A DNA stretch of 52,021 nucleotides. It comes from Actinomycetota bacterium. Its GTDB lineage: Bacteria; Actinomycetota; UBA4738; HRBIN12. The notes beneath the pieces are model-generated. The model did not search any database, was not told the origin of the DNA, and saw only the letters and a list, made by a program, of their open reading frames with translations. Positions 6,315 through 26,213 of this stretch are shown here, one piece after another (position 1 is the first letter of the stretch; the number at the start of each line of letters is the position of its first letter). Location: NCBI GenBank assembly GCA_036555645.1, contig DATBLA010000162.1, positions 1-52,021 of the forward strand, read 5' to 3'. The position numbers were made by a program, and so were the translations under genes.

Positions 6315-6619
6315 GCCTGCGAGGCCTCGGCCGCGTCGGCGCGTGCCTCCGTGACCCCGTCGTCCGAATCATTCGGCCGGTAGGTGCGGCGCACCTCGTT
6401 CGTCGTCGTGTGGCGCTCGGCCAGGAACCAGGTCCGGCACCCGTCGCGGTGCAACCACCACTCGGTCTGCCAGCCGTTCACGTTGTCACGGAAGAACAGG
6501 TAGCCGGCCAGGTCGGCGTCCGAGGAGTCCGGACCCGCCCGGCGCGACCGCTCGCCTCCGTAGGAGAACTCGAGCGCCTCCCTCGGACCGCAGTTCGGGC
6601 ACTCGATCAGGAAGGTCAT
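6311..6619 (-). CDS. soxD: Sarcosine oxidase delta-type subunit
   Basis: 102 aa starting MTFLIECPNCGPREALEFSYGGE...WWLHRDGCRTWF (zinc-ribbon SoxD signature). Its stop overlaps the soxA start by 4 nt. Confidence 0.9.
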   Translation of the reverse strand: MTFLIECPNCGPREALEFSYGGERSRRAGPDSSDADLAGYLFFRDNVNGWQTEWWLHRDGCRTWFLAERHTTTNEVRRTYRPNDSDDGVTEARADAAEASQA

Positions 6620-9197: not shown

Positions 9198-9275
9198 GCC
9201 GTTCGCGCCGCGTTGCTCGCCCGAAGTCCCCGAAACTAGGATGTGGGCCCGCGAGGGCCACCTTTGGAGGACGCG

Positions 9276-13024: not shown

Positions 13025-13897
13025 GTGGCCGAGGCCATCGAACGGTTCACCGACGACCAGGTCGCCTCCTTCCACCGGGACGGGTTCCTCATCGTCGAGG
13101 AGGGACTGGTCGGCGATCGCGCGCTCGAACGCCTTCGCGAACGCTATCTGCCGCTGTTCGACGGCGAGTACGAGACCGGCATCAGGCCCGACGAGGTGAA
13201 CTGGGTGAAGGGTCGCGACCCCGAGGACCGCACGCGCCAGCTCTGCAACGCGTGGAAGTCCGACACGGTGATCGCCGCCCAGGTGCTCTCGGCCAGGATC
13301 GGGCGGCTGGCCGCGCAGCTGATGGGCTACGACGGCGTTCGGATCCTGCAGGACAACGTGCTGTGGAAGCCGCCGGGAACGAAGGCGATCGGCTTCCACC
13401 AGGATGGGTCCTACGCCGACTACCTGGTGCCGCCCGAGATGATCACGTGCTGGATGAGCCTGCACGAGACGGCGGCCGACGCCGGTCCGATCGCGTACGT
13501 GCGCGGCTCGAACCACTGGGGGGTCGCCCCACCCTCGCGGGCCCAGTTCCACGCGCCCGAGGACTGGCTCGCCGGCGTCCGCGACGCACAGCCGGCGGCG
13601 GTGACCGAGCTCGAGGTCGTGCCCGTCGTCGTGAAGGCCGGCGGCGGCGCCTTCCACCACAACGCCACGTGGCACGGCTCCGAGCCCAACCGCAGCGGGA
13701 CCGTCGCGCGGATGGCGCTCGTCTCGCACATGCTGCCGTCGGACGCGCGGTTCCACGAGACGAACGTCGACGTGAACTACTCGCGGTACCGCCGGCGCGA
13801 CGATCCGTCCATGGACGAGTCGTTCTTCCCGGTGATGTGCCGTCGCGACGGCTACCGGACGCCCTGGCTGGCCGACCTCCCCGACATCGACGCCTGA
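13025..13897 (+). CDS. Phytanoyl-CoA dioxygenase (PhyH) family Fe(II)/2-oxoglutarate-dependent oxygenase
   Basis: 290 aa with FHRDGFLIVE, HxD motif (IGFHQDGSY) and distal His (ATWHGSEPNRS). GTG start lies 4 nt after the upstream stop. Confidence 0.85.
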   Translation: MAEAIERFTDDQVASFHRDGFLIVEEGLVGDRALERLRERYLPLFDGEYETGIRPDEVNWVKGRDPEDRTRQLCNAWKSDTVIAAQVLSARIGRLAAQLMGYDGVRILQDNVLWKPPGTKAIGFHQDGSYADYLVPPEMITCWMSLHETAADAGPIAYVRGSNHWGVAPPSRAQFHAPEDWLAGVRDAQPAAVTELEVVPVVVKAGGGAFHHNATWHGSEPNRSGTVARMALVSHMLPSDARFHETNVDVNYSRYRRRDDPSMDESFFPVMCRRDGYRTPWLADLPDIDA

Positions 13898-13910: not shown

Positions 13911-14891
13911 CTACGGGCCGCGGATCCGGCCCGCGAGCACCTCGAGGACCCGCCACGCGAGATCGGGTTCGGCACGCAGGGCCTGTTTCACGGTGTCCCT
14001 GGAGAGCGCGATCACCCGCAGCTGGGTCTCGGCGACGACGTCGGCCGTCCGCGGGCGGCCGTCGAGCATCGCCACCTCCCCGAAGAACTGCCCCGGTCCG
14101 AGACGGGCCACATCCCGCCCGTCCCGAACGACGCGGGCCCGGCCATTGAGGATCACGAACGCCTCACCCCCGCGCTCGCCCTGCCGGATCACCGTCTCGC
14201 CCGCCTCGTGGCCGTGCTCCTCCCCGGCGGACAGCAACCGCTCACGCATCGCGGGGGGCAGGGCCCCGAGGATCGAGCCCTCGGGCGCGGAGAGCGCCTC
14301 GTAGTGGCCGCCGTGGAACAGCAGGGGGTTGCCGCGTCCGTATCGGGCGTACTCGACGTGCGCGAGGAACAGCGAGTGGTCGCCGCCCCAGTACGACCGC
14401 GCGACCCGGGCCACGAGGTGCGCGAGCGCCCCCTCGACGAGCGGCGTCTCGCGGACGACCTCGAAGCTCGGCTCCGCGCCCGATTCGCCCGGGCGTCCGG
14501 CGAACCGATCCGAGAGCGCCTCCTGCTCCTCGGAGAGGACGCTGATCCCGAAGCGCTTGCCCTCGTTCAGCAACGCGTGCATCCGCGCGCGGTTGTCGAC
14601 CGAGATGAGCACGAGCGGCGGACGGAGCGAGACCGACATGAAGGCGTTCGCGGTCATGCCGTGCACCTGATCCTGTGCCGTCGTCGTGATCACCGTGACG
14701 CCGGTGGCGAACATCCCGAGCGTTCGACGGAAGGCGAGGACCGGATCCTCGCCCTCCTCCCCCTCGATCTGCAGCTCGTCGGCGGGCGGTGACTCCTCCC
14801 ACGCTCCGGAGGCGAGCGCCTCCGCGGCCCACACGGGGAAGGCGCCCACCGGAAGATCGAACTCGACCGGCGCGTCCTGCGGCCGGCTCAC
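13911..14891 (-). CDS. Flavin reductase domain fused to a C-terminal cyclic-nucleotide-binding domain
   Basis: The N-terminal half has FRRTLGMFATGVTVITT...HGMTANAFMSVSLRPPLVLISV (flavin reductase-like FMN-binding fold). The C-terminal half has GPGQFFGEVAMLDGRPRTADVVA (cNMP-binding phosphate-binding cassette). GTG start lies 3 nt after the upstream stop. Confidence 0.8.
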   Translation of the reverse strand: MSRPQDAPVEFDLPVGAFPVWAAEALASGAWEESPPADELQIEGEEGEDPVLAFRRTLGMFATGVTVITTTAQDQVHGMTANAFMSVSLRPPLVLISVDNRARMHALLNEGKRFGISVLSEEQEALSDRFAGRPGESGAEPSFEVVRETPLVEGALAHLVARVARSYWGGDHSLFLAHVEYARYGRGNPLLFHGGHYEALSAPEGSILGALPPAMRERLLSAGEEHGHEAGETVIRQGERGGEAFVILNGRARVVRDGRDVARLGPGQFFGEVAMLDGRPRTADVVAETQLRVIALSRDTVKQALRAEPDLAWRVLEVLAGRIRGP

Positions 14892-14894
14892 CGC

Positions 14895-16232
14895 TCAGCT
14901 CCAGGGGAACGGCGAGTGACTCACCGGGTGGAGCCTGCCCTGCGCGTATCGCGAGAACCGGAACGGCTCGAGGAGCGCCTGGGGCTCGCCGAGCACCTCG
15001 CGGGCCACGAGCGCGCCGACGCCGATCATCTTGTACCCGTGGTTCGAGTCCGCGATCACGTGCACGTTCTCGTGGAACCGGTCGAACACCGGGAAGCTGT
15101 CGGGCGTGAACGCCCCGATCCCGCCGGTCGGCGCCCGGCGATAGAGAGGACGCTTGCCCTCGAATCGTTTGTGGCAGTGCGCGAGCGCCGAGGTCCACAT
15201 CCGCTCGAACGCCTCCCCCACGACGAACTGCGTGCTGTCCGGACCGTACGGGTCCACGGCGACCTCGTCGGCGGGCAGCTCGACCACCCACGGCATCGCC
15301 CCGCCCTGCACCCCGCCGAAGTTGAAGTCGGGCTTGTAGTAGATGCCCCACAGCTCCTCGGTGACGAGCGAGCCGTCCGCATCGTCCAGGAGCGGCGCGT
15401 CGGTGTCGACGTGGACGACGGGCGGGAGGTTGCCCTCGTTGTCGAGCAGATACGTCGGATCGACGCCGAGCGTGCCCTCGACGAGACACCAGTACGTCCA
15501 CATGGGGCGCTCGTAGACGGCGCCGTCTCGTCCCTTGACCGGCACGACGGCCGGGAGGTCGAGCATGTGCCAGAAGTCCCGGACCCACGGGCCCGCCGCG
15601 ACGACGACCTGCTCGCACGCGATCACGCCCTGATCGGTCCGGACCGCCGTCACCGCGCCGCCGTCGATGTCGAACCCGGTGACGCTGACCGGGGCGAACA
15701 TGCGGACCCCGAGCGCCTCGCCCTTTCCGCGGAGCCCCACCATCGACGGCTGGCTCTCCGCGTAGCCGCCCTTGCGCTCGTGCAGGACGACCGTGATGTT
15801 GCGGGCCTGCCAGTCGGAGAAGATCGACTCCATGTACGTCCGGCACTCGTCCTCGCCCTCGATGAGGTCCGACGGGTAGCCGATCGCCCGTTGCTCCTCG
15901 TGGATCGTGACGACGTCCTCGTGCATGACCTCGGGCGCGATCTGGAGGTACCCCACCGGGTGGTAGTGGAAGGCCGCCGGATCCGACTCCCAGACCTCGA
16001 CCGAGTGCGCCATGAGCTCGCGCATCGCCGGCTGGAAGTAGTTGTTGCGGATGACGCCGCACGCGAGACCGGACGGGCCCGCCCCCACGCCGGTCTTGTC
16101 GAGCACGATGACGTCCTCGCCCGAGCCGGTCCCGCGGGCCCGCAGCCCCTCGGCCAGGTGCCAGGACGCGGACAGGCCGTGGACGCCGGCGCCGATGACC
16201 ACGACGCGCGCGCTCGTGGGGAGACTCGTCAC
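14895..16232 (-). CDS. FAD-dependent oxidoreductase, SoxB/DAO-like (second paralogue in the window, no partner subunits adjacent)
   Basis: GTG 16232 forms a GTGA overlap with the VOC gene stop. Contains ARVVVIGAGVHGLSASWHLA, GVIRNNYFQP and C-terminal SNHGYKMIGVG, collinear by eye with SoxB at 1676..2890. Confidence 0.8.
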   Translation of the reverse strand: MTSLPTSARVVVIGAGVHGLSASWHLAEGLRARGTGSGEDVIVLDKTGVGAGPSGLACGVIRNNYFQPAMRELMAHSVEVWESDPAAFHYHPVGYLQIAPEVMHEDVVTIHEEQRAIGYPSDLIEGEDECRTYMESIFSDWQARNITVVLHERKGGYAESQPSMVGLRGKGEALGVRMFAPVSVTGFDIDGGAVTAVRTDQGVIACEQVVVAAGPWVRDFWHMLDLPAVVPVKGRDGAVYERPMWTYWCLVEGTLGVDPTYLLDNEGNLPPVVHVDTDAPLLDDADGSLVTEELWGIYYKPDFNFGGVQGGAMPWVVELPADEVAVDPYGPDSTQFVVGEAFERMWTSALAHCHKRFEGKRPLYRRAPTGGIGAFTPDSFPVFDRFHENVHVIADSNHGYKMIGVGALVAREVLGEPQALLEPFRFSRYAQGRLHPVSHSPFPWS

Positions 16233-16597
16233 ACGCTCTGCCCCCGGGCGTCGCACACGCAGAACAGGGTCCCGTGGGGCGCCGTCATCGTCGTCCACGC
16301 GCCGCCGCCGCGGTCGCGCTCGTCGACGCGCCAGGCCACGGTCGCTCCGAGCCCCTCCAGCCGGCGGACCTCGGCGTCGGGGTCGTCGACACGCAGGTCG
16401 AGGTGCACGGGTGTCTTGCCGGGGGCGACCGCGTCCACGCGCTGGATGAGCACGGGCGGACCCGCCCCGCTCCTGGGCCCGAGCACGATGTACGGATCCC
16501 GCTCGTACCGGCGCCCGTAGCCGAGCGCCTCGGACCAGAACGCCGCGGCGTCGTCGGCCTCGACGGCGTCGATCACGATCTCCAGGGAGGCCGTCAC
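16229..16597 (-). CDS. VOC (glyoxalase/bleomycin-resistance/dioxygenase) family protein
   Basis: 122 aa from GTG 16597 (GTGA overlap with the upstream stop). FWSEALGY...VHLDLRVDD...GGAWTTMTAPHGTLFCV resembles single-module VOC proteins. Confidence 0.65.
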   Translation of the reverse strand: MTASLEIVIDAVEADDAAAFWSEALGYGRRYERDPYIVLGPRSGAGPPVLIQRVDAVAPGKTPVHLDLRVDDPDAEVRRLEGLGATVAWRVDERDRGGGAWTTMTAPHGTLFCVCDARGQSV

Positions 16598-17379
16598 GGT
16601 ACCCCCGCGGTCGCGAGGCGATCGTCCGCGCGGCGCGTGCACGCCCGCACGAAGTCCCGCCAGATCTCCAGCATCCGGTCGTCCTGCTGCCACTCCTCGT
16701 GGAGCTCCCACTGAACGCCGAGGACGAACGACGGCGCGCCGGGCATCTCGATCGCCTCGACGACGCCGTGGGCCGCCCACGCGACCGGCTCGATCCCTTC
16801 GCCCGGCCGATCGATCGCCTGGTGGTGGTAGCTGTCGACGTCGGTGCGGCCCCCGAGGCGCGACCCGAGGAAGGAGCCGGGCTTCACGTCGATCGGATGC
16901 GTCGGGTGCGGGGGGCGCTCCCGGCCCTCGAGGGTGGCGGCGACGAGCGCTCGCCACTCGTCCCACTTCGCCCCGGGGTGTCCGCCGCCCGGGAACTCGT
17001 CCAGGTCGCCGAACAGGCTCCCGCCGAAGGCGACGTTGAGGATTTGACACCCCCGACACACGCCGAGCACCGGCACGCCGCTTCCCACGGCGAGGCGCGC
17101 GTAGTGCAGCTCGATCTCGTCGAGCACGGGCGCGGGATCGCCCTGGAGCGGATGTGGATCCTCCCGGCCGTATCTCCACGCTTCGATGTCGCGGCCGCCG
17201 GCGAGCACGAGGCCGTCGAGCCGTTCGATGAGCTCGACGCGATCGTCCTGCTGCTCGTAGTACGGGAGCAGCAGCGGCAACGCCCCCGCGGCGAGCAGCG
17301 GGCGCGAATACCCGAAGCCGTAGTAGTCGCCGTAGTCCGCCAGCCCCTCCGAGATGCCGACGAGCGGACGGGAGGACAC
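16594..17379 (-). CDS. Class-I glutamine amidotransferase-like gamma-glutamyl hydrolase (peptidase C26, PuuD-like)
   Basis: GVCRGCQILNVAFGG (nucleophile Cys) and SYHHQAI (His) are present. GTG 17379 has ACGGAG upstream. The N-terminal part of the 292-aa ORF overlaps the upstream gene. Confidence 0.8.
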   Translation of the reverse strand: MSSRPLVGISEGLADYGDYYGFGYSRPLLAAGALPLLLPYYEQQDDRVELIERLDGLVLAGGRDIEAWRYGREDPHPLQGDPAPVLDEIELHYARLAVGSGVPVLGVCRGCQILNVAFGGSLFGDLDEFPGGGHPGAKWDEWRALVAATLEGRERPPHPTHPIDVKPGSFLGSRLGGRTDVDSYHHQAIDRPGEGIEPVAWAAHGVVEAIEMPGAPSFVLGVQWELHEEWQQDDRMLEIWRDFVRACTRRADDRLATAGVP

Positions 17380-17390
17380 GCGCGGCTCCG

Positions 17391-17825
17391 TCAGTGACCG
17401 GCAGGTTTCTCCCAGCCCTCGAGCGTGGGCGGGGTCCACGAGGTCCCGACGGTCTCGGACCCGTCGACCCACGACCCGAGCAGGGGCTGGGCGAACTTCG
17501 CGTGTCGTCGTTTCAGCTGGATGCCGTACGAGTTCCCGCTCGTCAGGTGCTTCATGAGCACCTTGCGCGCGACCTCGTCCTCCGACCCCTCGGGGATCGG
17601 GAAGTAGATCTTCAGGAACGAGCTGGAGTACCGGTCGAAGACGGCCGGCACGCCGTCCTCCTCGAGCAGGTGGACGTCCTCGAGCCAGTTCAGGTCCTCG
17701 CCCGGCGTGAGCGCCTCCAGGTCGATGTCGTCGAGCAGCGACGCGTCCTCCTGGTACGGGAACCGATGGCCGGCGAGCTCCTCGGCGTCGAGCGTGCCCT
17801 TCGTCGTCAGGTGCGATTCGGTCAT
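17391..17825 (-). CDS. Hypothetical acidic protein (144 aa), unknown function
   Basis: ATG 17825 lies 8 nt after the mgsC TAG, and that stop overlaps an AGGAG RBS. The composition is non-repetitive and protein-like. No motif was recognised. Confidence 0.6.
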   Translation of the reverse strand: MTESHLTTKGTLDAEELAGHRFPYQEDASLLDDIDLEALTPGEDLNWLEDVHLLEEDGVPAVFDRYSSSFLKIYFPIPEGSEDEVARKVLMKHLTSGNSYGIQLKRRHAKFAQPLLGSWVDGSETVGTSWTPPTLEGWEKPAGH

Positions 17826-17833
17826 CTCGGCTC

Positions 17834-19243
17834 CTACGACGGGTACTGTCCGGTGTCGGCCAGGTACTTCTGCATCATCGCCCGGATCTCCTCGAGCGTC
17901 GTCTGCTCGCTCACGCCGGGGATGTAGTCGGTGCCGGCGAGGGGGACCTTGGCCATCGCCGCCGCTTCGACGGTGAGCGCGCACAGGTCCTCGGGCTCGA
18001 GCGAGTGGACGTCGGTCTTCCCGCAGGCGCGGGCGAGCATCTGGAGCTCCATCGTCATCGCGGTGAGCAGGTTGTAGACGCGCTCGGCCCCCTCGTCGAC
18101 GACGAGGCGCTTGCGGAGCTCCGGGTCCTGGGTCGTGATGCCGACCGGGCACCGCCCCGTGTGGCAGTGGTAGCACTGGCCGGCGGGCACGCCCACGGTT
18201 CCCTCGTAGTCCGTGACGCCGGGGATCTCCTTGTTGCAGTTCAGCGCCATGAGCGCCGTCGTGCCGATGGCCACGGCGGTCGCGCCGAGCGCGAGGCACT
18301 TCGCCACGTCCGCGCCGTTGCGGATCCCGCCGGCCACCACGAGGTCGACCTCGTCGGCCAGGCCGACGTCCTCGAGCGCGCGGCGCGCCTCGGGGATCGC
18401 CGCCATGAGCGGGATGCCCGTCTCCTCGGTCGCGATGTGCGGTCCCGCGCCGGTCGAGCCCTCGGCGCCGTCGAGATAGATGATGTCCGGCCCGCACTTG
18501 GCGGCCATCCGGACGTCGTCGTAGACGCGGGCGGCGCCGAGCTTGAGCTGGATCGGGATCCGGTAGTCGGTGGCCTCGCGCACCTCCTGGACCTTGAGCG
18601 AGAGGTCGTCGGGGCCCAGCCAGTCCGGGTGGCGGGCCGGCGAGCGCTGGTCGATCCCTGGCGGCAGCGAGCGCATCTCGGCGACCTGCTCGGTCACCTT
18701 CTGACCCATGAGATGCCCGCCGAGCCCCACCTTGCATCCCTGGCCGATGAAGAACTCGCACGCGTCGGCGAGCATGAGGTGGTGGGGGTTGAAGCCGTAG
18801 CGGCTCTGGATGTTCTGGTAGTACCACTTGATCGACAGGTCGCGTTCGGGCGGGATCATGCCGCCTTCGCCCGAGCAGGTGGCGCTCCCGGCCATCGAGG
18901 ACCCCTTCGCGAGCGCCATCTTCGCCTCGAGCGACAGGGCCCCGAAGCTCATCCCCGTGATGTAGATCGGGATGTCGAGCTCGATCGGGTACTTCGCGAA
19001 CCGCGCGCCGAGCACGGTCTTCGTCTCGCACTTCTCCCGATAGCCCTCGATGACGAAGCGCGTGAGCGTCCCGGGAAGGAACATGAGCTGATCCCAGTGA
19101 GGGATCGGCTTGAACATCGAGAACCCGCGCATCCGGTAGCGGCCGAGCTCCGACTTCACGTGGATGTCGTTGATGACCTCGGGCGTGAAGATCGGGCTGC
19201 GCCCGAGAATGTTCTCCTTGGAGGACACGTCTTCGGCTGCCAC
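17834..19243 (-). CDS. mgsC: FMN-binding glutamate-synthase-family protein (GltB domain 2-like), N-methylglutamate synthase subunit C type
   Basis: 469 aa with ITGMSFGALS, LDGAEGSTGAGP, VAGGIRNGADVAKCLALGA and a CYHCHTGRCPVGITTQDP Fe-S-like motif. GGGAGGA RBS upstream. Confidence 0.85.
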   Translation of the reverse strand: MAAEDVSSKENILGRSPIFTPEVINDIHVKSELGRYRMRGFSMFKPIPHWDQLMFLPGTLTRFVIEGYREKCETKTVLGARFAKYPIELDIPIYITGMSFGALSLEAKMALAKGSSMAGSATCSGEGGMIPPERDLSIKWYYQNIQSRYGFNPHHLMLADACEFFIGQGCKVGLGGHLMGQKVTEQVAEMRSLPPGIDQRSPARHPDWLGPDDLSLKVQEVREATDYRIPIQLKLGAARVYDDVRMAAKCGPDIIYLDGAEGSTGAGPHIATEETGIPLMAAIPEARRALEDVGLADEVDLVVAGGIRNGADVAKCLALGATAVAIGTTALMALNCNKEIPGVTDYEGTVGVPAGQCYHCHTGRCPVGITTQDPELRKRLVVDEGAERVYNLLTAMTMELQMLARACGKTDVHSLEPEDLCALTVEAAAMAKVPLAGTDYIPGVSEQTTLEEIRAMMQKYLADTGQYPS

Positions 19244-19262
19244 GTTCGGATCCTCCCGCTGG

Positions 19263-20057
19263 TCAGTGGATGACGAGCTTGCGCTCCGAGGGTTCGAGGT
19301 TGTCGTAGTTGTAGAGCACCTTGCCGCACACGAACTTCTGGAACTCGGGCGGGGTCCCGAGACCGTAGATCCGGAACTTGCGCTCGATGAGCTCGGTGTC
19401 GGCGTCGGTCCACTCGCCCGGCACGCAGTCGATGCCGAGCGACGCGACGGTGCCGGCGACGAAGATCTCCCCGTCGTACATGGAGTCGCCCAACCCGGGC
19501 CCGACGTCGCCGCAGATGATCTGGCGGCCGCGCTGCATCATGAAGGCGGTCATCGATCCCGCGTCGCCCCCGACGATGATCGTCCCGCCCTTCTGGTCGA
19601 TCCCCGTCCGGGCCCCCACCGAGCCGTGGACCACGAGGTCGCCCCCGCGGATCGCGGCGCCGGTCAGCGACCCGGCGTTCTTCTTGATCTCGACGACGCC
19701 CGACATCATGTTCTCGCAGACCGACCACCCGACCCGGCCCTCCACGACGATCTCGGGTCCGTCGATGAGCCCGAGGCCGAAGTAGCCGAGGCTCCCCTCG
19801 AATCGGATCCGGCACCGCTGGAGGATGCCGACCCCGATCGAGTGCTTGGCGCCGGGATTTCGCACGGTCACGTCGCGGATCCCCTGCTCGTAGATCAGGT
19901 TGCGGAGCTCGAGGTTGATCTGGCGCGTCGTGAGCTTCGCGGCGTCGAAGACCGCCCGGTCGCCGTCGATCTCGGAGACGGCCGGGACCTCGGCGTCCGG
20001 CTCGGCGAGGCCGCGCGCGTCGTACGTGATCCGCCGCTCGCCGCCTACCGGCTCCAT
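19263..20057 (-). CDS. mgsB: GXGXG-motif glutamate synthase domain-3-like protein, N-methylglutamate synthase subunit B type
   Basis: 264 aa from ATG 20057 (13-nt overlap with mgsA). Shows the repetitive beta-helix pattern GSLGYFGLGLIDG / GVVEIKKNAGSLTGAAIRGG / GTIIVGGDAGSMTAF. Confidence 0.85.
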   Translation of the reverse strand: MEPVGGERRITYDARGLAEPDAEVPAVSEIDGDRAVFDAAKLTTRQINLELRNLIYEQGIRDVTVRNPGAKHSIGVGILQRCRIRFEGSLGYFGLGLIDGPEIVVEGRVGWSVCENMMSGVVEIKKNAGSLTGAAIRGGDLVVHGSVGARTGIDQKGGTIIVGGDAGSMTAFMMQRGRQIICGDVGPGLGDSMYDGEIFVAGTVASLGIDCVPGEWTDADTELIERKFRIYGLGTPPEFQKFVCGKVLYNYDNLEPSERKLVIH

Positions 20058-20974
20058 ACGAGCACCTGCCTCTCGTAGGGGTCGTAGGTGTCGATCTCGC
20101 GGTCCAGCACGGCGCGGATCGCGATCTCCTCCGACGCCATCGCGACGAGCTCGTCGGACTCGTAGAGCACGAGCGGCTTCGCCGCCATCTCGTCCTTGGC
20201 CACCCCGAGGCTGTCCTGCGTCACGGCCATGTACGTGAAGACCCCGTCGAGGTCGTCCAGGCTCTGGTCCATCGCCTCCTTCAGCGAGGAGCCCTCGGCC
20301 ATCTTCTCGGCCAGGTACACGGCGATGATCTCCGAGTCGCACTCGGACTGGAAGCGGTGCCCGCTGAACTCCAGACGCCGCTTCCACTGGAAGTAGTTCG
20401 TGAGCTGGCCGTTGTGCACGACCGCGACGTCGGAGAACGGGTAGGCCCAGTACGGGTGCGCACCCGAGATGTCGACGTCGGACTCCGTCGCCATCCGCAC
20501 GTGCCCGATCGCGTGCGTGCCCTCGAAGCCGGCGAGGCCGTACAGGTTCGAGACCTCCATCGCGTCCCCGAGGTCCTTCACGATCTCGAGCGAGTGCCCG
20601 AGCGAGAGGACCTCGCACCCGGGCACGTCCTCGAGGTAGTCGGCGAGCGCCTTCAGGTCGCCGTCGTAGCGGACCTGCGCCCGGTAGGCGTACTCGGTCT
20701 CGCTCTCGACGCGGTCGATCGAGGCACCGATCTTCGACAGGCGCGTCTCGACCTCGAGGCGATGCCGCTCGAGCCGCTCCTTGAAGTCGAAGTCACGCGG
20801 GTCGTTCGCGTCGGCGAGCTTGAACCGGATGACGACGAGGTCGCTCGCGGGACCGAACAACGCGTAGCCGCTCGAGTCCGGCCCCCGATGCTTCATCGAC
20901 TGGAGCATCGAGGTCATCTCCGAGCCGACGTCGGCGGATCCGTCCCGGTGGATGATCCCTGCGATACCGCACAT
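20045..20974 (-). CDS. mgsA: Class-II (Ntn) glutamine amidotransferase, N-methylglutamate synthase subunit A type
   Basis: Starts MCGIAGI (N-terminal nucleophile Cys). Contains GHVRMATES and HNGQLTNY. GAGAGGAG RBS upstream. Confidence 0.85.
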   Translation of the reverse strand: MCGIAGIIHRDGSADVGSEMTSMLQSMKHRGPDSSGYALFGPASDLVVIRFKLADANDPRDFDFKERLERHRLEVETRLSKIGASIDRVESETEYAYRAQVRYDGDLKALADYLEDVPGCEVLSLGHSLEIVKDLGDAMEVSNLYGLAGFEGTHAIGHVRMATESDVDISGAHPYWAYPFSDVAVVHNGQLTNYFQWKRRLEFSGHRFQSECDSEIIAVYLAEKMAEGSSLKEAMDQSLDDLDGVFTYMAVTQDSLGVAKDEMAAKPLVLYESDELVAMASEEIAIRAVLDREIDTYDPYERQVLVWSR

Positions 20975-20998
20975 GCGGGCTCGACTCCTCTCGCCGAA

Positions 20999-22396
20999 CT
21001 ATGGCAGGACGTCGAGGTAGGTCTCGATGTCCCAGTCGCTCACCGTTGCCCGGAAGCGGTCCCACTCGTCCCGCTTGTAGTGCATGAAGACCGTGTACAT
21101 CTCCCCGGGGAGCGCCTCCTTGACGACCGGGTCGGCCTCGAGCGCGTCGAGCGCGGCGCCGAGGTCGTGGGGCACCTTCTTCACGTCCTTGCCCCCGGCG
21201 ATCGCCTCGTAGATGTTCCGCTCCTCCGGCTCGCCCGGATCCAGGCTGCGGTCGATGCCGTCCTTCATCGCCATGAGCAGCGCGGCGAAGGACAGGTACG
21301 GGTTCACCGCCGAGTCGACCGAGCGGTACTCGAACCGGCCGGGCGCCGAGATCCGCAGCGCGGTCGTCCGGTTCTGGAAGCCCCAGTCGGCGAAGACCGG
21401 CGCCCAGAACCCCGCGTCCCAGAACCGACGGTACGAGTTCACCGTCGGCGCGGTGATCGCGGTGAGCGCGGAGAGGTGCTCGAGCACCCCGCCGATCGAG
21501 TGCAGCCCGATCTTGCCGGGCACCCGTGGGTTGTCGCCCTCGGGCATGAACATGTTCTCCTCGCCCTGCCACAGCGAGATGTTGTGGTGGCAGCCGTTCG
21601 CCGACACGCCCATGAACGGCTTGGGCATGAAGCACGCGAACGCCCCGAGCTCCCGCCCCACCTGGCGACAGATCTGCCGGTACGTGGTCAGCCGGTCGGC
21701 CGTCGCCTCCGCCCGGTCGAACATGAAGTTCAGCTCGAGCTGTCCCGGCGCGTCCTCGTGATCGCCCTGGATCATGTCCAGGCCCATCGCGCGTCCGTAC
21801 TCCATGACCTTGTGGATCAGCGGCTGGAGCTCGGAGAACTGGTCGATGTGGTAGCAGTACGGCTTCGTCTTCCCCTCGACCGTCGGCTTGCCGTCGGCGT
21901 CGACCTTCAGCCACATCATCTCGGGCTCGCAGCCCGCACGCAGGTGCAGGCCGGTCTCCTGCTCGAACTCGGTATGGAGCCGCTTCAGGTTCCCGCGGCA
22001 GTCCGACGTGAGGAAGGCGCCGCCGTCCACCTCCTCCTCCCGGCCGCGGAACAGCGTGCAGAACACGCGCGCGGTCTTCGTGTCCCACGGGAGCACGCAG
22101 AAGGTGTCGGGCTCGGGAAGGCCCACGAGCTCTCGGGCCTCGGGCCCGTAGCCGATGTAGTTGCCCTCACGGTCGATGAACAGGTTCGCGGTCGAGCCGT
22201 AGACGAGCTGGAACCCTTTGTTCGCGATGTTCTCCCAGTGCGCGGCCGGGATCCCCTTGCCCATGATCCGGCCCGTCACGGAGACGAACTGGTAGTACAT
22301 GTACTCGACGCCGGCGGCGTCGATCTGCTTGCGAACCTCCTTGATCGCCTGCTGGCGGCCATCCTGATCGACGAACGCTTCGATATCGGTCGTCAC
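20999..22396 (-). CDS. gmaS: Type III glutamine-synthetase-like gamma-glutamyl-amide ligase (gamma-glutamylmethylamide synthetase type)
   Basis: GTG 22396 is preceded by GGGGAGG. 465 aa with GCEPEMMWL, HEDAPGQLELNF, NGCHHNISLW, NSYRRF and RFEYRSVDSAVNPYL (GS catalytic-domain motifs). Confidence 0.85.
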   Translation of the reverse strand: MTTDIEAFVDQDGRQQAIKEVRKQIDAAGVEYMYYQFVSVTGRIMGKGIPAAHWENIANKGFQLVYGSTANLFIDREGNYIGYGPEARELVGLPEPDTFCVLPWDTKTARVFCTLFRGREEEVDGGAFLTSDCRGNLKRLHTEFEQETGLHLRAGCEPEMMWLKVDADGKPTVEGKTKPYCYHIDQFSELQPLIHKVMEYGRAMGLDMIQGDHEDAPGQLELNFMFDRAEATADRLTTYRQICRQVGRELGAFACFMPKPFMGVSANGCHHNISLWQGEENMFMPEGDNPRVPGKIGLHSIGGVLEHLSALTAITAPTVNSYRRFWDAGFWAPVFADWGFQNRTTALRISAPGRFEYRSVDSAVNPYLSFAALLMAMKDGIDRSLDPGEPEERNIYEAIAGGKDVKKVPHDLGAALDALEADPVVKEALPGEMYTVFMHYKRDEWDRFRATVSDWDIETYLDVLP

Positions 22397-22560: not shown

Positions 22561-24231
22561 ATGAAGAGCGGGCTGGAGATCGCGCAGGAGGCGGAGCTCC
22601 GTCCGATCACGGACGTCGCCGAGGCCGCGGGGATCGCGGCCGACGAGCTCGAGCCGTTCGGTCGCTACCGGGCCAAGGTCGACCTGTCGATCCTCGACCG
22701 CCTCGCCGGTCGCCCCGACGGCAAGCTCGTCATCACGACGGCGATCACGCCGACGAAGGCCGGCGAGGGCAAGACGACGACGTCGATCTCGCTCACCCAG
22801 GGCCTCGGCAGGATCGGCAAGGACGTCCTGCTGTGTCTGCGCGAACCGTCGATGGGACCGGTGTTCGGCATCAAGGGCGGCGGCACCGGCGGCGGGTACG
22901 CGCAGGTCGTCCCGATGGAGGACATCAACCTGCACTTCAACGGGGACTTCCATGCCGTGCAGGCCGCGCACAACCTGCTGGCGTCGGCGCTCGATGCCTC
23001 GCTCTACCACGGCAACACGCTGGGGATCGACCCCCAATCGATCACGTGGCCCCGAACCCTCGACGTGAACGCCCGCGAGCTGCGCTACACGGTCATCGGG
23101 CTCGGCGGCAGCGTCCACGGCGTCCCGCGCGAGAACCAGTTCGTCATCGTCGCGGCCTCGGAGATCATGGCGATCCTCGCGCTCGCCGCCGACTTGGCGG
23201 ACCTGCGCGCCCGGCTCGGCCGGATCGTCGTCGGGTCGACCCGCGACGGCGAGCCCGTCACCGCCGAGCAGCTTCGGGTGGCCGGCGCGATGACCGTGAT
23301 CATGAAGGACGCGCTCAAGCCGAACCTCGTCCAGACGCTCGAAGGGCAGCCCGTCCTCATCCACGCCGGCCCGTTCGGCAACATCGCGCACGCGAACAAC
23401 TCGATCATCGAGGATCGGATCGCGCTCAAGCTCGCCGACTACGTCGTCACCGAGGCGGGGTTCGCGAGCGACCTCGGATTCCAGAAGTTCTGCGACATCG
23501 TGTGCCGGTTCGGGGGGTTCGCGCCCTCCGCGGGCGTCCTCGTCACGACCGTGCGGGCGACGAAGTCCCACGGCGGCGTGGCCTTCGACGCCCTCGCGAC
23601 CGAGGACCTCGATGCGGTTCGACGCGGCGTCGACAACCTCGCCCAGCACATCGCGATCGTCCGCGAGTACGGCCTGCCGTGCGTCGTGTCCGTCAACAAC
23701 TTCCCGAGCGACACGGAGGCGGAGGTCGAGCTCATGCGCGAGCTCGCGGTCGGGGCGGGTGCTGGAACGGTCGTCGTCAACCGCGCCTTCGCCCGGGGAG
23801 GCGAGGGGGCGGTGGAGCTCGCGGAGGCGGTGGTCGCGGCGTGCGAGGAGCCGAGCGCGTTCCACCAGCTCACCCACGAGGGAACGCCGATCGCCGAGCA
23901 GATCGAGGCGATCGCCACCCGCGTCTACGGCGCCGACGGCGTCGACTTCCAGGCGCAGGCCACCAAGGACATCGCGCGGATGGAGCAGTTGGGCTTCGGG
24001 ACGTTCCCCGTGTGCATGGCGAAGACGCACCTGTCGCTCACGCACGACCCGTCGCTCGTGAACCGGCCGACCGGTTGGCGGCTCCCCGTGCGGGGCGTGG
24101 TCCCGAGCGCGGGGGCGGGCTTCGTCGTCGTGCTCTGCGGCGACATGCAGCGGATGCCCGGCCTCGGACGCACGCCCGCGTACATGAAGGTCGACATCGA
24201 CGAGGACGGCCGGACCGTCGGCCTGTTCTGA
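22561..24231 (+). CDS. fhs: Formate--tetrahydrofolate ligase
   Basis: ATG 22561. Contains TPTKAGEGKTTTSISL P-loop, EPSMGPVFGIKGGGTGGGY and PVCMAKTHLSLTHDP. Confidence 0.95.
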   Translation: MKSGLEIAQEAELRPITDVAEAAGIAADELEPFGRYRAKVDLSILDRLAGRPDGKLVITTAITPTKAGEGKTTTSISLTQGLGRIGKDVLLCLREPSMGPVFGIKGGGTGGGYAQVVPMEDINLHFNGDFHAVQAAHNLLASALDASLYHGNTLGIDPQSITWPRTLDVNARELRYTVIGLGGSVHGVPRENQFVIVAASEIMAILALAADLADLRARLGRIVVGSTRDGEPVTAEQLRVAGAMTVIMKDALKPNLVQTLEGQPVLIHAGPFGNIAHANNSIIEDRIALKLADYVVTEAGFASDLGFQKFCDIVCRFGGFAPSAGVLVTTVRATKSHGGVAFDALATEDLDAVRRGVDNLAQHIAIVREYGLPCVVSVNNFPSDTEAEVELMRELAVGAGAGTVVVNRAFARGGEGAVELAEAVVAACEEPSAFHQLTHEGTPIAEQIEAIATRVYGADGVDFQAQATKDIARMEQLGFGTFPVCMAKTHLSLTHDPSLVNRPTGWRLPVRGVVPSAGAGFVVVLCGDMQRMPGLGRTPAYMKVDIDEDGRTVGLF

Positions 24232-24238
24232 CGCCCGG

Positions 24239-24634
24239 TCAGGTCGCGACGACCGCGACGGCCTCGATCTCGACGAGCTGGCCCCGGTACCCGAGGATCG
24301 GCACGCCGAGCAGCGTGCTCGGGCACCGGCCGATGGGAGAGGTGCGCACGACCTCCCACACGCGGTTCTGCCGGTCGTGGTCGCCCCCGGCCACGTAGAC
24401 CGTCGTCTTCACGACGTCCTCGGGCCCGGCCCCGCCCGCTCGAAGGGCCACGACGAGGTTGTCGATGACGACGGCGGTCTGGGAGACGGGGTCGTCCGGG
24501 CCGACGAGGGTCCCGTCGGCATCGAGCGGCACGGCGCCGGCCGTGAACACGAGGGTGGCGCCGGAGGCCACGGCGACGTGTGCGTATCCCGGGGGTTCGG
24601 CGAGCGAGTCGACCGTGTGGAGGCGGACCGGCAC
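24239..24634 (-). CDS. ridA: RidA/YjgF-family enamine/imine deaminase
   Basis: 131 aa with GYAHVAVASGATLVFTAG...KTTVYV...VEIEAVAVV. Confidence 0.8.
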   Translation of the reverse strand: MPVRLHTVDSLAEPPGYAHVAVASGATLVFTAGAVPLDADGTLVGPDDPVSQTAVVIDNLVVALRAGGAGPEDVVKTTVYVAGGDHDRQNRVWEVVRTSPIGRCPSTLLGVPILGYRGQLVEIEAVAVVAT

Positions 24635-24932: not shown

Positions 24933-26213
24933 ATGTCCACGTGGCCCGATGTCACGGAGGGTCGGGGCCCCCGACCCGCGCCGCAAGCGATTGAGCCGGA
25001 TGAGGGACTCACCCTGGAACGGCCGTACGAGGTCGTCGCGTGGGGAACCGTCGACGGCGTGCCGTGGCAGATCGACGCGTACGTGCTCGCTCCGGCCCCC
25101 GACGGGAAGTGGTGGGAGCACGGACCGGTCGGGCCGGGCTTCCAGTTCATGCTCGGCGAGCAGGGCGGGTTCGGGGGCGGAGATGTCGGGACCTTCCTCA
25201 ACGAGGGCACGCACCTGTCGGCCTCGACGCACGTCTTCGGCTCACAGCCCTCGATCGTCGCGTGGACGGGCGTCACGTCCGAGCGAGTCGTCGCCATCGA
25301 GGTTCGACTCGGAGATGGCGAGGTTCGGCGGGTGGAGCCGATCCGACTCCTCGATGGATTCCCACCGGTGTTCTGGTTCTTCCCGCCCAGGGGCGCCCCG
25401 GGTGACGTGGTCGCGCTCGCTGCGGACGGCGCGGTGCTCCAGACCGACCACCTCGTCGACTCCGACGTGCCGCCCAACGCGAACTCCGGCTCGGCGGTGA
25501 ACCCGTTCGGATATCGAGACGACCGTCCCCCACCCGGCTGGCCGCCGGACGACACGGTCTACGGACCGGGAGAGGGTCCTCGTCATGCGGAGGACTTCCA
25601 TCTGCACGAGGTGACCTTCCCGATCTACGCCCTCATGCCCGACCGGTGGGACGGATATGCCTGCCTGTCCGGAAGCAGCACATCCATGCGCGGCGTCGAC
25701 GAGGTTCGGATCGGGTACTTCGAGGAGCCTGCCGGTGGCCGGCGGGGGCTCGAGGTCGTCAGCGGACGTCCCGATCGCCACGGGAGGCGAACACGACATG
25801 ACCAGGACGTTGGCGTCTGGTGGGCCGAGCCCTACTCCGATCCCGACGTGCTCAACTTCGCCCCACGATTCCTCTCAACCGATGAACTGCGGGCGAGTTT
25901 CGGGGAGTTCGGCCTTCCCGACTTCGGAGTGACGCGCGTGGCCGCGCTCACCGAGCTCGAGGTCGACGGTCACCGCGTCGAGGCGCGTCGGCGGGAGTTC
26001 GCCCGGCACCCCGCACTGCGCTGCGTCGATTTCGTGCTTCCGGGCGTGCGAGTGGTCGTCCAGGGGTGGGGGCTCTCCTTCGACGAGCTCGAGGAACATG
26101 CGCGAGCGCTGGAGCCGCTCGAGCTCGGGACCGACCTGCTCCAGGCGTTGAAGGACGCGCAGGACCGCAGCGATCGACGCGCTTCCGAGCTGTACCGCCA
26201 CGACGAACCCTAG
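24933..26213 (+). CDS. Hypothetical protein (426 aa), no recognisable domain
   Basis: Long ORF with ordinary amino-acid composition (W/F/Y-rich, not Arg/Pro noise). ATG 24933. Its stop overlaps the convergent GcvT-like gene stop (CTAG). Confidence 0.55.
   Translation: MSTWPDVTEGRGPRPAPQAIEPDEGLTLERPYEVVAWGTVDGVPWQIDAYVLAPAPDGKWWEHGPVGPGFQFMLGEQGGFGGGDVGTFLNEGTHLSASTHVFGSQPSIVAWTGVTSERVVAIEVRLGDGEVRRVEPIRLLDGFPPVFWFFPPRGAPGDVVALAADGAVLQTDHLVDSDVPPNANSGSAVNPFGYRDDRPPPGWPPDDTVYGPGEGPRHAEDFHLHEVTFPIYALMPDRWDGYACLSGSSTSMRGVDEVRIGYFEEPAGGRRGLEVVSGRPDRHGRRTRHDQDVGVWWAEPYSDPDVLNFAPRFLSTDELRASFGEFGLPDFGVTRVAALTELEVDGHRVEARRREFARHPALRCVDFVLPGVRVVVQGWGLSFDELEEHARALEPLELGTDLLQALKDAQDRSDRRASELYRHDEP

Follow-up and report, generated by a model that had tools for sequence, protein, structure and literature searches.

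Nine adjacent genes of an uncultured actinobacterium form a real operon, which is a divergent variant of the known pathway from methylamine to N-methylglutamate (NMG), combined with accessory enzymes. The operon is modular and lies within a 28-kb catabolic island for methylated amines, leading from trimethylamine N-oxide (TMAO) to one-carbon (C1) units; the original prediction, made from the same window (the whole stretch of 52,021 nucleotides), overlooked that the entire region forms such an island.

All nine genes are on the minus strand. They encode a glutamine synthetase (GS)-like ligase (g1; 20999-22396), an MgsA-like class-II amidotransferase subunit (g2; 20045-20974), an MgsB-like GXGXG subunit (g3; 19263-20057), an MgsC-like FMN subunit (g4; 17834-19243), a clade-specific protein of 144 amino acids (g5 or U144; 17391-17825), a PuuD/SpuA-type γ-glutamyl-amide hydrolase of the Peptidase C26 family (g6; 16594-17379), a small VOC (Glyoxalase_6) protein (g7; 16229-16597), an FAD amine oxidase/dehydrogenase (g8 or DAO8; 14895-16232), and a fusion of a flavin reductase and a cNMP-binding domain (g9; 13911-14891). 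The predicted order and all eight junctions (24, -13, 19, 8, 11, -4, -4, and 3 nt from g1 to g9) were confirmed, and in the frames proposed, GC at third codon positions amounts to 0.9-1.0. Start and stop codons overlap as GTGA at the g6/g7 and g7/g8 junctions, and purine-rich motifs resembling ribosome-binding sites precede g2, g4, g5, and g6. Within the string, a consensus scan, which has little power at 70% GC, detected no terminator- or promoter-like sites on the minus strand. The Pfam domains (Gln-synt_C, GATase_6/7, GXGXG, Glu_synthase, none, Peptidase_C26, Glyoxalase_6, DAO, and Flavin_Reduct with cNMP_binding, respectively) agree with the gene labels given earlier, and both the gene content and the tight coupling of the nine genes are supported. 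MAGs and metagenome contigs of independent origin, from related uncultured Actinomycetota, have the same order (L006, L008, L016, L024, L093, L095, L098, L099, and L100), sometimes with one added class-I GATase gene after g5, so the arrangement is not due to chance. The 4-nt overlap between the C26 and VOC genes is kept in L006, L008, L093, and L095.

The string is not a single indivisible unit. Among 49 species-level loci with full flanks, where genes within 10 kb of the core were considered nearby, the core of g1-g5 (ligase, MgsA/B/C-like subunits, and U144) was invariant (48-49 of 49). Near this core, DAO8 was found in 31 loci, a hydrolase of the C26 or class-I GATase type in 17, the flavin reductase in 11, and the VOC gene in 5, while the complete tail was present in 2. 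DAO8 was located immediately 3′ of U144 in 11 loci, and in 19 it had no hydrolase nearby. The five distal genes had been expected to stay with the ligase and Mgs genes. This held for g5, which was never found apart from mgsC, and in part for g6-g9, which are missing from the core loci of most relatives, yet were not encountered elsewhere: all six look-ups anchored on g8 or the VOC gene landed in the same island (3 of 3 for the VOC gene). The core is present across Thermoleophilia- and Acidimicrobiia-type genomes, and in more distant relatives it is repeatedly surrounded by FAD amine oxidases, C26 hydrolases, and aldehyde dehydrogenases (ALDHs). An ALDH gene adjoins the C26 gene in L037 and L043, a self-contained module of PuuA-like ligase, P450, ALDH, DAO8, and C26 lies beside the core in L049 and L083, and TMADH-ETF modules are added in relatives. 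The predicted joining of an NMG-type core to a pair of γ-glutamyl hydrolase and FAD oxidase is thus supported.

The ligase had been classified as gmaS type, an assignment that we could not uphold. With 328 bits, g1 (Gln-synt_C, 298 bits) falls below the cut-off of 469.6 of the GmaS equivalog model TIGR03105, as do its orthologs, whereas a second ligase adjoining the operon in close relatives passes (603-625 bits). Its score for the GlnA model is 276 bits (cut-off 429). The best PDB match is a glutamate--methylamine ligase (9qur, 6.8e-67), which an archaeal GS almost equals in score, and g1 is closer to Paracoccus GmaS (31.5% identity) than to Escherichia coli PuuA (26.6%). Comparison with characterised GmaS (PMC7948447) showed that the flap (GFWAP) and the pocket (QGDHED..GQLELN) of g1 are of the GmaS type, among them the Trp of the flap and Q/D/E/E/N in the pocket. 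We predict that g1 is a GS-like γ-glutamyl-alkylamide ligase with a GmaS-like active site, outside the GmaS equivalog family. Of the 49 full loci, 47 lack a canonical GmaS at distances of up to 10 kb from the core, which in most cases is the sole visible Mgs-like set; L095 additionally carries a second mgsABC set, fused or directly joined to soxD-soxA. This second set, the failure of g1 and its orthologs against TIGR03105, and the passing GmaS next door in close relatives suggest that g1-g5 may act on a substrate other than methylamine.

The NMG pathway of Paracoccus aminophilus (pAMI6) and Methylocella silvestris (gmaS-mgsABC-mgdABCD) likewise has a GS-like ligase beside three GltB-domain-like subunits in the order A-B-C. 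When compared to the P. aminophilus mgsABC cluster (PMC4543880), g2 (GATase_6/7) is 34% identical to MgsA and shares its N-terminal catalytic Cys (MCGI), g3 (GXGXG, 44 bits; cut-off 32.5) is 35% identical to MgsB, and g4 (Glu_synthase, 305 bits) is 54% identical to MgsC. Here, however, the ligase gene opens the operon instead of coming last, both MgsB and MgsC are extended at a terminus (g3 at the N-terminus, by about 35 amino acids), an extra invariant gene follows mgsC, and the tail supplies further genes for a hydrolase, a VOC protein, an oxidase, and a reductase. The Cys residues of g4, kept in 70 of 70 orthologs, align with cysteines in a segment of the glutamate synthase large subunit (GltB) that we take to bear the 3Fe-4S ligands, and are replaced in both MgsC proteins compared (Paracoccus and Streptomyces). 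As g4 keeps Fe-S cysteines that the reference MgsC proteins lack, its redox chemistry may differ from that of the classical NMG synthase. GltB has the amidotransferase, GXGXG, and FMN domains of g2, g3, and g4, but here these are split over three proteins, with no central domain, no GltD, and a partner ligase that is not a glutamine synthetase. U144 had no match in Pfam, NCBIfam, or the PDB, and its AF2 model is of low confidence (pLDDT 49). Its 7836 homologs are all highly similar and occur in at least 562 species genomes, and the gene follows mgsC wherever a locus has sufficient flank. U144 is therefore a candidate for a fourth subunit or an assembly factor of the MgsABC-like complex.

Among the tail genes, g6 (Peptidase_C26, 161 bits) has the nucleophile motif LGVCRG and is 29% identical to E. 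coli PuuD; it matched PuuD in the PDB (6vtv, 8e-15) and an unnamed glutamine amidotransferase (7d4r, 3.5e-31), presumably SpuA. The only informative PDB match of g7 (Glyoxalase_6, 92 bits) is an uncharacterised protein (4lqb), and its 4-nt overlap suggests translational coupling to g6. In g8, the DAO match (111 bits) is confined to the N-terminal half, the score for the soxB model (64 bits) is far below the cut-off, and the identity to Paracoccus MgdA is 24.5% over 212 amino acids. Foldseek, queried with a low-confidence model (pLDDT 62), returned β subunits of heterotetrameric sarcosine oxidases as top matches (3e-18), with DMGDH and MSOX as further structural neighbours, so g8 is modelled as an FAD amine oxidase/dehydrogenase of the SoxB-β/DMGDH/MSOX superfamily. 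In one public gene call, g8 begins at 16202 (435 amino acids); the alternative start at 16232 (445 amino acids) appears preferable because the first ten residues are conserved in homologs. The proposed PuuB-like logic did not hold: g8 and E. coli PuuB share only a 56-aa FAD motif, for which g8 was rejected as a PuuB relative, and the operon lacks a PuuC-type dehydrogenase. Putrescine utilisation in E. coli (PuuA, PuuB, PuuC, and PuuD) does share a GS-like ligase, a DAO-superfamily FAD oxidase, and a C26 hydrolase with this operon, but PuuE and a putrescine transporter are also missing here. The Ipu (isopropylamine) and Tdn/Atd (aniline) systems, likened to it by gene content, pair a GS-like ligase with a hydrolase of the C26 type, which undoes γ-glutamylation and, in the aniline system, probably keeps the γ-glutamyl intermediate from accumulating. 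The P450 and ALDH of Ipu are found in L049 and L083, whereas our window lacks both a P450 and a ring dioxygenase, and its context is that of C1 compounds and methylated amines.

The original prediction saw no role for the flavin reductase in either textbook pathway. The best NCBIfam matches of g9 are HpaC/StyB-type reductases, and in L056, L069, L070, and L088 the reductase forms one tight operon with an ACAD-like gene and Tdm (genes 3-32 nt apart or overlapping by 4 nt). In the window, the ACAD-Tdm pair belongs to a plus-strand unit convergent to g9, consisting of an APC-family permease (7631-9142; AA_permease_2), an ACAD-fold flavoprotein (9264-10679), the TMAO demethylase Tdm (10684-13020; DUF1989 and GCV_T), and, as last gene, a PhyH-family Fe(II)/2OG dioxygenase (13025-13897; 84 bits, HxD...H motif). 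Tdm scored 1177 bits against NF053776 (cut-off 1100) over residues 20-777, while the permease has the TMAO permease TmoP as its best match (NF053774, 206 bits; cut-off 690). The ACAD-fold protein, a candidate oxygenase component with Acyl-CoA_dh domains, is under every NCBIfam cut-off and lacks the canonical catalytic Glu (MGPT in place of YEGT); its gene always adjoins Tdm, and of the 14 loci with Tdm, 8 have PhyH after it. We consider g9 a probable NAD(P)H:flavin reductase serving the ACAD-like flavoprotein as its partner. In L049 and L083, the reductase is found beside IclR-DAO8, with no ACAD in view. The proteobacterial TMA/TMAO route (tmm, tdm, tmoP, and dmmDABC) shares the equivalog-level Tdm, the TmoP-like permease, downstream NMG-type genes, and tetrahydrofolate (THF)-linked C1 oxidation, but here Tdm is accompanied by the ACAD-fold flavoprotein, the reductase, and the dioxygenase, and no Pfam domain typical of FMO-type Tmm or Dmm subunits was detected among the window genes scanned.

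Although mgdABCD had been presumed missing, soxD (6311-6619; SoxD), soxA (3513-6314; SO_alpha_A3 and GCV_T), soxG (2890-3516; GCV_T), and soxB (1676-2890; DAO) lie on the same minus strand 7.3 kb from g9, in D-A-G-B order. These proteins score under the soxA/soxB subfamily cut-offs and are 41/37/34/35% identical to Paracoccus MgdA/B/C/D, the 41% of the SoxB β subunit against MgdA of P. aminophilus holding over full length; the set would encode an MgdABCD-like heterotetrameric N-methyl-amino-acid oxidase/dehydrogenase. As in known NMG systems, which likewise have a four-subunit SoxBDAG-like enzyme and TMAO catabolism in the vicinity, THF and formate genes are close by: a formate-tetrahydrofolate ligase gene divergent from g1 (22561-24231, plus strand; FTHFS, 810 bits), a stand-alone GcvT-like THF-dependent aminomethyltransferase (26210-27319, minus; GCV_T and GCV_T_C, under the gcvT equivalog cut-off), a 5-FTHF cyclo-ligase, FdhD (794-1633, minus; FdhD-NarQ, 223 bits), and a formate-dehydrogenase-like molybdoenzyme, represented by its N-terminal part (2-772, minus; molybdopterin domain). 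An in-frame TGA in the latter (470-472, within CNRT*HAPSVVGL) makes it likely that this is a selenocysteine-containing formate dehydrogenase. A RidA-family imine deaminase (24239-24634, minus; Ribonuc_L-PSP, 62 bits) is also encoded here.

These data allow several readings. It is possible, if rather unlikely, that g1-g5 (with g8) handle dimethylamine or some other short alkylamine instead of methylamine, as a paralogous route via glutamate that runs in parallel with a canonical GmaS/MgsABC/Mgd route elsewhere or next door. For dimethylamine, γ-glutamyl-dimethylamide would become N,N-dimethylglutamate, from which g8 would take the first methyl group and SoxDAGB the second. RhGmaS weakly accepts dimethylamine and ethylamine (PMC7948447), and the divergence of g1 from a co-resident ligase that passes the GmaS model, the presence of both gene sets in L095, and a core with an extra conserved subunit and Fe-S cysteines all fit this account. 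Tdm yields dimethylamine, for which the scanned window genes hold no Dmm/Tmm-typical domain, and the ALDHs near the core in some lineages would suit longer alkyl groups. DAO8 moreover occurs alongside the SoxBDAG-like genes rather than instead of them, so a plain NMG oxidase role for g8 would be redundant. Against this stand the amine pocket of g1, identical to that of characterised GmaS, and the rarity of a canonical GmaS near a core that is usually the sole Mgs-like set; N,N-dimethylglutamate is, to our knowledge, undocumented as a metabolite.

The original prediction proposed, as one of two options, a branched fate, here read as a true Puu/Ipu-type branch beside the Mgs route, in which g8 would oxidise the still γ-glutamylated product of g1 and g6 would then deglutamylate it. 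This we regard as improbable, even with a PuuD/SpuA-type hydrolase in the operon, C26 adjoining DAO8 in distant lineages (with the added genes of L049 and L083), ALDH beside C26 in L037 and L043, and a class-I GATase or C26 gene directly after U144 in 5 of 49 loci. The structural neighbours of g8 use N-methyl amino acids, neither operon nor window contains an ALDH, and 19 full loci have DAO8 with no hydrolase near. Going by established flavoenzyme chemistry, the amide N-methyl group of γ-glutamylmethylamide would be a poor substrate for flavin amine oxidases. Ammonium assimilation by a GS-GOGAT-like operon, with g1 as glutamine synthetase and g2-g4 as a split glutamate synthase, could account for the GltB-like cysteines of g4 and the nearly equal scores of g1 for archaeal GS and methylamine ligase. 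It is very improbable, as Trp replaces the catalytic flap Glu in g1, the pocket is GmaS-type, the GlnA cut-off is missed, a GltD-type reductase is absent, and the surrounding island is dedicated to methylated amines.

We give about an even chance to our preferred reading, in which the operon comprises three modules serving a flow from TMAO to C1 units; gene arrangement, protein families, modularity, and co-occurrence are shown directly, whereas the substrates of each step are inferred. In the invariant module (g1-g5), the ligase would form a γ-glutamyl-alkylamide, and the MgsABC-like enzyme, with its GOGAT-type Fe-S cysteines and probably with U144 as part of the complex, would move the amine onto the 2-oxoglutarate/glutamate skeleton, yielding an N-alkylglutamate. 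In the accessory module (g6-g8), which varies by lineage, the hydrolase would strip glutamate from γ-glutamyl amides formed in excess or by mistake, and g8 would oxidatively demethylate an N-methyl amino acid, with NMG as the simplest candidate. The third module, g9, would provide the ACAD-fold flavoprotein of the convergent unit with reduced flavin. After import, TMAO would thus be converted by Tdm to dimethylamine and a C1 unit, and dimethylamine to methylamine by the ACAD-like protein with g9, PhyH, or g8 as candidates. Methylamine would be turned into γ-glutamylmethylamide by g1 and then into NMG by g2-g5, from which g8 and/or SoxDAGB would regenerate glutamate and release a C1 unit, to be passed via THF (GcvT-like proteins and FTHFS) to formate and formate dehydrogenase.

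The nine minus-strand ORFs at 13911-22396 have the content, order, and junctions described in the original prediction, as ORF coordinates, third-position GC (0.9-1.0 in these frames, in a window of ~70% G+C), junction lengths, and Pfam domains all agreed. From first to last, they encode a GS-like ligase (g1; Gln-synt_C), proteins resembling MgsA, MgsB, and MgsC (g2 to g4; GATase_6/7, GXGXG, and Glu_synthase, respectively), a 144-aa protein without a Pfam domain (g5, called U144 here), a hydrolase (g6; Peptidase_C26), a VOC protein (g7; Glyoxalase_6), an FAD oxidase (g8, called DAO8 here; DAO), and a flavin reductase fused to a cNMP-binding domain (g9; Flavin_Reduct and cNMP_binding). The junctions measure 24, -13, 19, 8, 11, -4, -4, and 3 nt. 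The two 4-nt overlaps, at g6/g7 and g7/g8, have the sequence GTGA, and several of the starts are preceded by Shine-Dalgarno-like motifs. A consensus scan of the coding strand detected no internal terminator or promoter in the string, although such a scan has little power in a genome of this kind. The locus was present in several JGI metagenome contigs at 99-100% identity. Within the window, no Rfam match and no tRNA genes were found. A 426-aa ORF called in a public contig at 24933-26213 (plus strand) had no family match and a poor codon-bias score, and may not be real.

The nine genes are enclosed by a methylated-amine/C1 island that spans the window from 1 to ~28.5 kb, as judged from a trimethylamine N-oxide (TMAO) demethylase and permease unit, a sox set, formate-related genes, and a group of C1 genes. 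Convergent with g9 is a plus-strand unit encoding an APC permease (7631-9142), an acyl-CoA dehydrogenase (ACAD)-fold flavoprotein (9264-10679), the TMAO demethylase Tdm (10684-13020), and a PhyH-family dioxygenase (13025-13897). Among NCBIfam models, the permease matched that of the TMAO permease best. Tdm has the DUF1989 and GcvT architecture in Pfam and passed the equivalog cutoff of NF053776 (1177 versus 1100 bits, covering model positions 11-762 of 763). Further along the strand from g9 lie homologs of soxD, soxA, soxG, and soxB (1676-6619, minus strand), fdhD (794-1633, minus strand), and the start of a gene for a formate-dehydrogenase-like molybdopterin oxidoreductase, which runs off the window end (2-772, minus strand). 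This last gene contains an in-frame TGA at 470-472, inside CNRT*HAPSVVGL; since this matches the FdhF-type selenocysteine site, it probably encodes a selenoprotein rather than being a pseudogene. Divergent from g1 are genes for FTHFS, a RidA protein, a GcvT paralog, and 5-formyl-THF cyclo-ligase. No Tmm- or Dmm-typical Pfam domain was detected in the window genes that were scanned. The product of 7167-7523 (minus strand), 118 aa long, has two CxxC pairs and is predicted to contain a membrane helix; it had no family match, and accompanies the TmoP-like permease in ~20 related loci. Another methylated-amine module, comprising a TMADH-like flavoprotein, ETF alpha and beta, an Fe-S CCG oxidoreductase, and GcvT, was found in a related locus (L006:11709-18576); TMADH-ETF-type modules near the core also occur in L028, L030, L071, and L081, and replace or supplement ACAD-Tdm in some lineages.

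The view that the nine genes lack an mgd partner fails once the whole locus is considered. The reference mgd/mgs cluster of Paracoccus aminophilus pAMI6 has been described (PMC4543880), and the SoxB homolog of the window aligns along its entire length with the beta subunit of that mgdABCD (MgdA) at 41% identity. Against MgdA, MgdB, MgdC, and MgdD, the sox set showed 41, 37, 34, and 35% identity, respectively, and all four subunits (beta, delta, alpha, and gamma) are encoded together near mgs. The sox proteins scored below the soxA and soxB subfamily cutoffs, and Mgd and Sox are indistinguishable by sequence here.

The assignment of g1 to the GmaS type stood for its active site and not for family membership. 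The identity of the ligase to Paracoccus GmaS (31.5%) exceeds that to E. coli PuuA (26.6%), and the best solved relative of g1 is 9qur, a glutamate-methylamine ligase. In RhGmaS, the amine pocket comprises Gln175, Asp177, Glu179, Glu186, and Asn188, and the flap Glu of GS is replaced by Trp (PMC7948447). In alignment A2, the same Gln/Asp/Glu/Glu/Asn set was found in g1 (IQGDHED..GQLELN), and the flap at the catalytic Glu position of GS reads GFWAP in g1, ATWAP in GmaS, GYEAP in E. coli GlnA, and GMYVP in PuuA. GFWAP was also present in the core ligases matched by a motif search (roughly two-thirds of core ligases). At the ammonium-binding Asp50' loop of GS, MAFFT places an insertion specific to g1 (LFIDREGN), and phmmer pairs IDREG with FDGSS of archaeal GS. 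On TIGR03105, the GmaS equivalog model (cutoff 469.6 bits), g1 scored 328 bits and its orthologs in L013 and L069 scored 351 and 339, respectively, with Paracoccus GmaS reaching 642 bits as a control; on the PuuA-type model NF045547, g1 scored 248 bits, below the cutoff of 650. As the flap and pocket residues match and the TIGR03105 score falls below the cutoff, g1 would be GmaS-like in action, judging from its active-site residues, and lies outside the curated GmaS family.

Some genomes hold the g1-type ligase together with a GmaS that passes TIGR03105. A second ligase with a PucR-type regulator lies divergently upstream of the operon in L006, L008, L010, L024, and L095, and those of L008, L010, and L024 scored 603-625 bits on TIGR03105. 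These 3 canonical gmaS genes (L008:1855-3219, L010:3751-5076, and L024:1970-3316) are cotranscribed with a gene for a GAF+PucR-type regulator. The window, where g1 is the only GS-like gene and g2-g4 the only mgs set, has FTHFS at this position. The clade thus has two upstream variants, one with a canonical GmaS and regulator and one with FTHFS.

The genes g2, g3, and g4 are adjacent to each other and to the gene for the GS-like ligase, and encode an amidotransferase, a GXGXG protein, and an FMN-binding Glu_synthase, the make-up by which MgsABC genes were recognized. Their products are 34, 35, and 54% identical to MgsA, MgsB, and MgsC of pAMI6, respectively, and g2 starts with MCGI, supplying the N-terminal Cys of a class-II amidotransferase. 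In g4, cysteines of the motif LNC...CYHCHTGRCPVG (residues ~336-365) align with cysteines of E. coli GltB, which we take to be 3Fe-4S ligands. Paracoccus and Streptomyces MgsC instead have E/D, W/F, and D at these positions. As such, g4 differs from the reference MgsC, an FMN subunit without Fe-S ligands. The GltB-aligned cysteines were kept in 70 of 70 full-length orthologs, and this conservation points to an Fe-S cluster in g4, and possibly to an electron input that the classical N-methylglutamate (NMG) synthase does not need. A second mgsABC set, encoding proteins of 300, 233, and 464 aa, was observed in L095 (17270-20565), in the same island as a string like g1-g9. It is 45, 45, and 55% identical to the first set of that locus and keeps the cysteines; it is followed directly by soxD-soxA and is not accompanied by U144.

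Sequence searches against Pfam, NCBIfam, and PDB returned nothing for U144 itself, and no relatives were detected beyond its tight family. It contains no cysteines, and its AF2 model has a pLDDT of 49. It is a candidate component of the Mgs-like enzyme, the one line of evidence being its invariant position after mgsC. Kinship with GltB was rejected, as a profile comparison with E. coli GltB gave 2% probability and a similar "L.TPGE" stretch was treated as chance. A 617-aa "fusion" of MgsC and U144 (P0124; L100:5360-7213) was likewise set aside as a likely frameshift artefact, as its middle looks out of frame and the assembly is based on long reads.

U144 has 7836 close homologs. An exhaustive representative search yielded only 226 clusters for it, and a pattern scan of species-representative genomes found it encoded in at least 562. 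Its hosts are Gaiellales, Solirubrobacterales, other Thermoleophilia, Acidimicrobiia, unclassified Actinomycetota, and one bin labelled Chloroflexi, and the g1-g9 system is widespread among uncultured Actinomycetota that live in soil or are associated with sponges. The proteins of the window were mapped onto the 80 best loci, and counts were taken from the 49 with a full 10 kb on either side. The order GS-mgsA-mgsB-mgsC-U144 was found in 48-49 of these 49 loci, and the complete tail seen in the window in only 2. DAO8 lies within 10 kb of this core in 31 of 49; 11 loci have it directly after U144, and 6 have it in divergent orientation upstream of the ligase. Hydrolases of the C26 or a related class-I GATase type were present in 17 loci, Tdm or a TMADH-like protein in 16, an ACAD-like protein in 13, a flavin reductase in 11, and a VOC protein in 5. 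Look-ups anchored on 3 homologs of g8 and 3 of the VOC protein all reached the same island with the same gene order, often with an extra gene for a 238-aa class-I GATase between U144 and the C26 hydrolase. Given the near-universal core and the rarity of the full tail, the five-gene core is the deeper unit, and the nine-gene (or ten-gene) string is the conserved configuration of one clade.

Of the tail proteins, g6 scored 161 bits on Peptidase_C26 and carries the Cys nucleophile motif LGVCRG. It scored below the PuuD equivalog cutoff (60 versus 266 bits), and its nearest solved relatives include PuuD and the unnamed glutamine amidotransferase 7d4r, which we believe to be SpuA. The 4-nt overlap between g7 and g6 was seen in the window and in four relatives. 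The sole informative structural relative of g7 is an uncharacterised protein. A VOC paralog ~35% identical to g7 lies between GcvT and FTHFS in L016, L019, and L060, and is absent from the window.

DAO8 matches the DAO model in its N-terminal half only. Its similarity to PuuB is confined to 56 aa around the FAD motif, it is 24.5% identical to MgdA of pAMI6 over 212 of 445 aa, and it reached 64 bits on the soxB model (cutoff 529). The JGI label "methylglutamate dehydrogenase subunit A" for its homologs was rejected as loose in view of this partial match to MgdA. The top Foldseek matches were beta subunits of heterotetrameric sarcosine oxidase, followed by proline dehydrogenase beta, DMGDH, and MSOX, although the model (pLDDT 62, with a poorly predicted substrate domain) allows superfamily-level conclusions only. 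For all of these enzymes, the substrates oxidised are N-methyl or cyclic secondary amino acids. At this level, the predicted fold of DAO8 still resembles those of the MgdA and SoxB beta subunits.

The reductase domain of g9 is of the HpaC/StyB type. Flavin-dependent N- and S-oxygenases of the ACAD fold that need a separate flavin reductase, such as DszC and isobutylamine N-hydroxylase, are well known. In L056, L069, L070, and L088, the genes for ACAD, Tdm, and the reductase follow one another in the same orientation, separated by 3-32 nt or overlapping by 4 nt. As the last member of the minus-strand string, the reductase gene of the window and its clade faces the terminus of the ACAD-Tdm-PhyH unit. 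The motif YEGT, which holds the catalytic Glu of acyl-CoA dehydrogenases, is replaced by MGPT in the ACAD-like protein, although the base of this protein may lie at another position. From these relatives, the MGPT motif, and the two-component precedents, we infer that g9 serves the ACAD-like protein, which is perhaps a trimethylamine (TMA) or dimethylamine (DMA) oxygenase replacing Tmm or Dmm. The ACAD-like protein scored under every NCBIfam cutoff, and its sequence is nearer to those of true acyl-CoA dehydrogenases than to those of DszC, HsaA, or SfnB. Its gene always adjoins Tdm in the loci compared, often with the PhyH dioxygenase next. In L049 and L083, the flavin reductase lies beside IclR-DAO8, with no ACAD in view. 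As Tmm- and Dmm-type domains were absent from the window genes scanned, the ACAD-like protein, the flavin reductase, and PhyH may carry out the TMA-oxygenase and/or DMA-demethylase steps of these actinobacteria. The C-terminal domain of g9 shares 43% identity with a stand-alone cNMP-binding protein (49884-50378, minus strand), and L100 has a small gene similar to the latter directly after its g9 homolog.

We favour a modular island in which the core g1-g5 would convert a small amine, most simply methylamine, into an N-alkylglutamate. DAO8 and/or SoxDAGB would then regenerate glutamate and pass C1 units to THF, while g6 would remove surplus or mis-made gamma-glutamyl amides and g9 would work for a neighbouring (ACAD-like) oxygenase. 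In the main rival, which we consider unlikely, the core would serve another amine as a paralogous pathway, and Tdm in the island makes DMA the obvious candidate for that amine. The original prediction had instead joined the NMG core to a Puu-like gamma-glutamyl branch. Such a branch finds support in L049 (13840-20393) and L083, where ALDH-P450-(PuuA-like ligase), an opposite-strand flavin reductase, and IclR-DAO8-C26 form a self-contained module 3-8 kb from the core, and in L037 and L043, where an ALDH gene adjoins C26. However, DAO8 often follows U144 with no hydrolase nearby and co-occurs with SoxBDAG-like genes, and a flavin amine oxidase would be unlikely to attack the amide N-methyl of gamma-glutamylmethylamide. 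The locus shares a PuuD-type hydrolase (g6) with the Puu pathway, but counterparts of PuuA, PuuB, and PuuC were not found, and no Aldedh (PuuC-type) domain was detected in the window genes scanned. We regard a Puu-type branch as quite improbable. That the core, GltB-type cysteines included, is a GS-GOGAT system appears highly implausible.

A more specific proposal, to which we attach little probability, is that abundant soil Actinomycetota (Thermoleophilia, Acidimicrobiia, and relatives) handle the DMA released by Tdm through a glutamate-scaffold route that would be new to the literature, and not a DMA monooxygenase. The GmaS paralog would gamma-glutamylate DMA, a four-component Fe-S Mgs-like enzyme including U144 would shift the amine to the alpha-nitrogen, and DAO8 and then SoxDAGB would strip the methyl groups one by one, with the canonical GmaS/Mgs set of some relatives handling free methylamine.

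Methylated amines are an important source of carbon and nitrogen, and climate-active gases derive from them. To our knowledge, the genes for their catabolism have been worked out almost entirely in Proteobacteria. Neither a gene set of the g1-g9 type in Gaiellales or Actinobacteria nor a gamma-glutamyl DMA route was found in the searchable literature; the only related find was the remark, in general terms, that gmaS-mgsABC-like clusters occur in some Mycobacterium genomes. As far as this literature shows, the system is previously undescribed. The results caution against uncritical use of gmaS-type markers or KO labels such as "mgdA" in these lineages. They indicate a distinct five-gene glutamate-mediated route in a large, mostly uncultured group of Actinomycetota, which adds an extra conserved protein and probable Fe-S chemistry. 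Tdm, whose usual partners Tmm and Dmm were not found, is flanked by genes for an ACAD-fold flavoprotein, a PhyH-family 2OG dioxygenase, and a flavin reductase, and the locus supplies concrete candidates for the TMA and DMA steps that are missing in actinobacteria.
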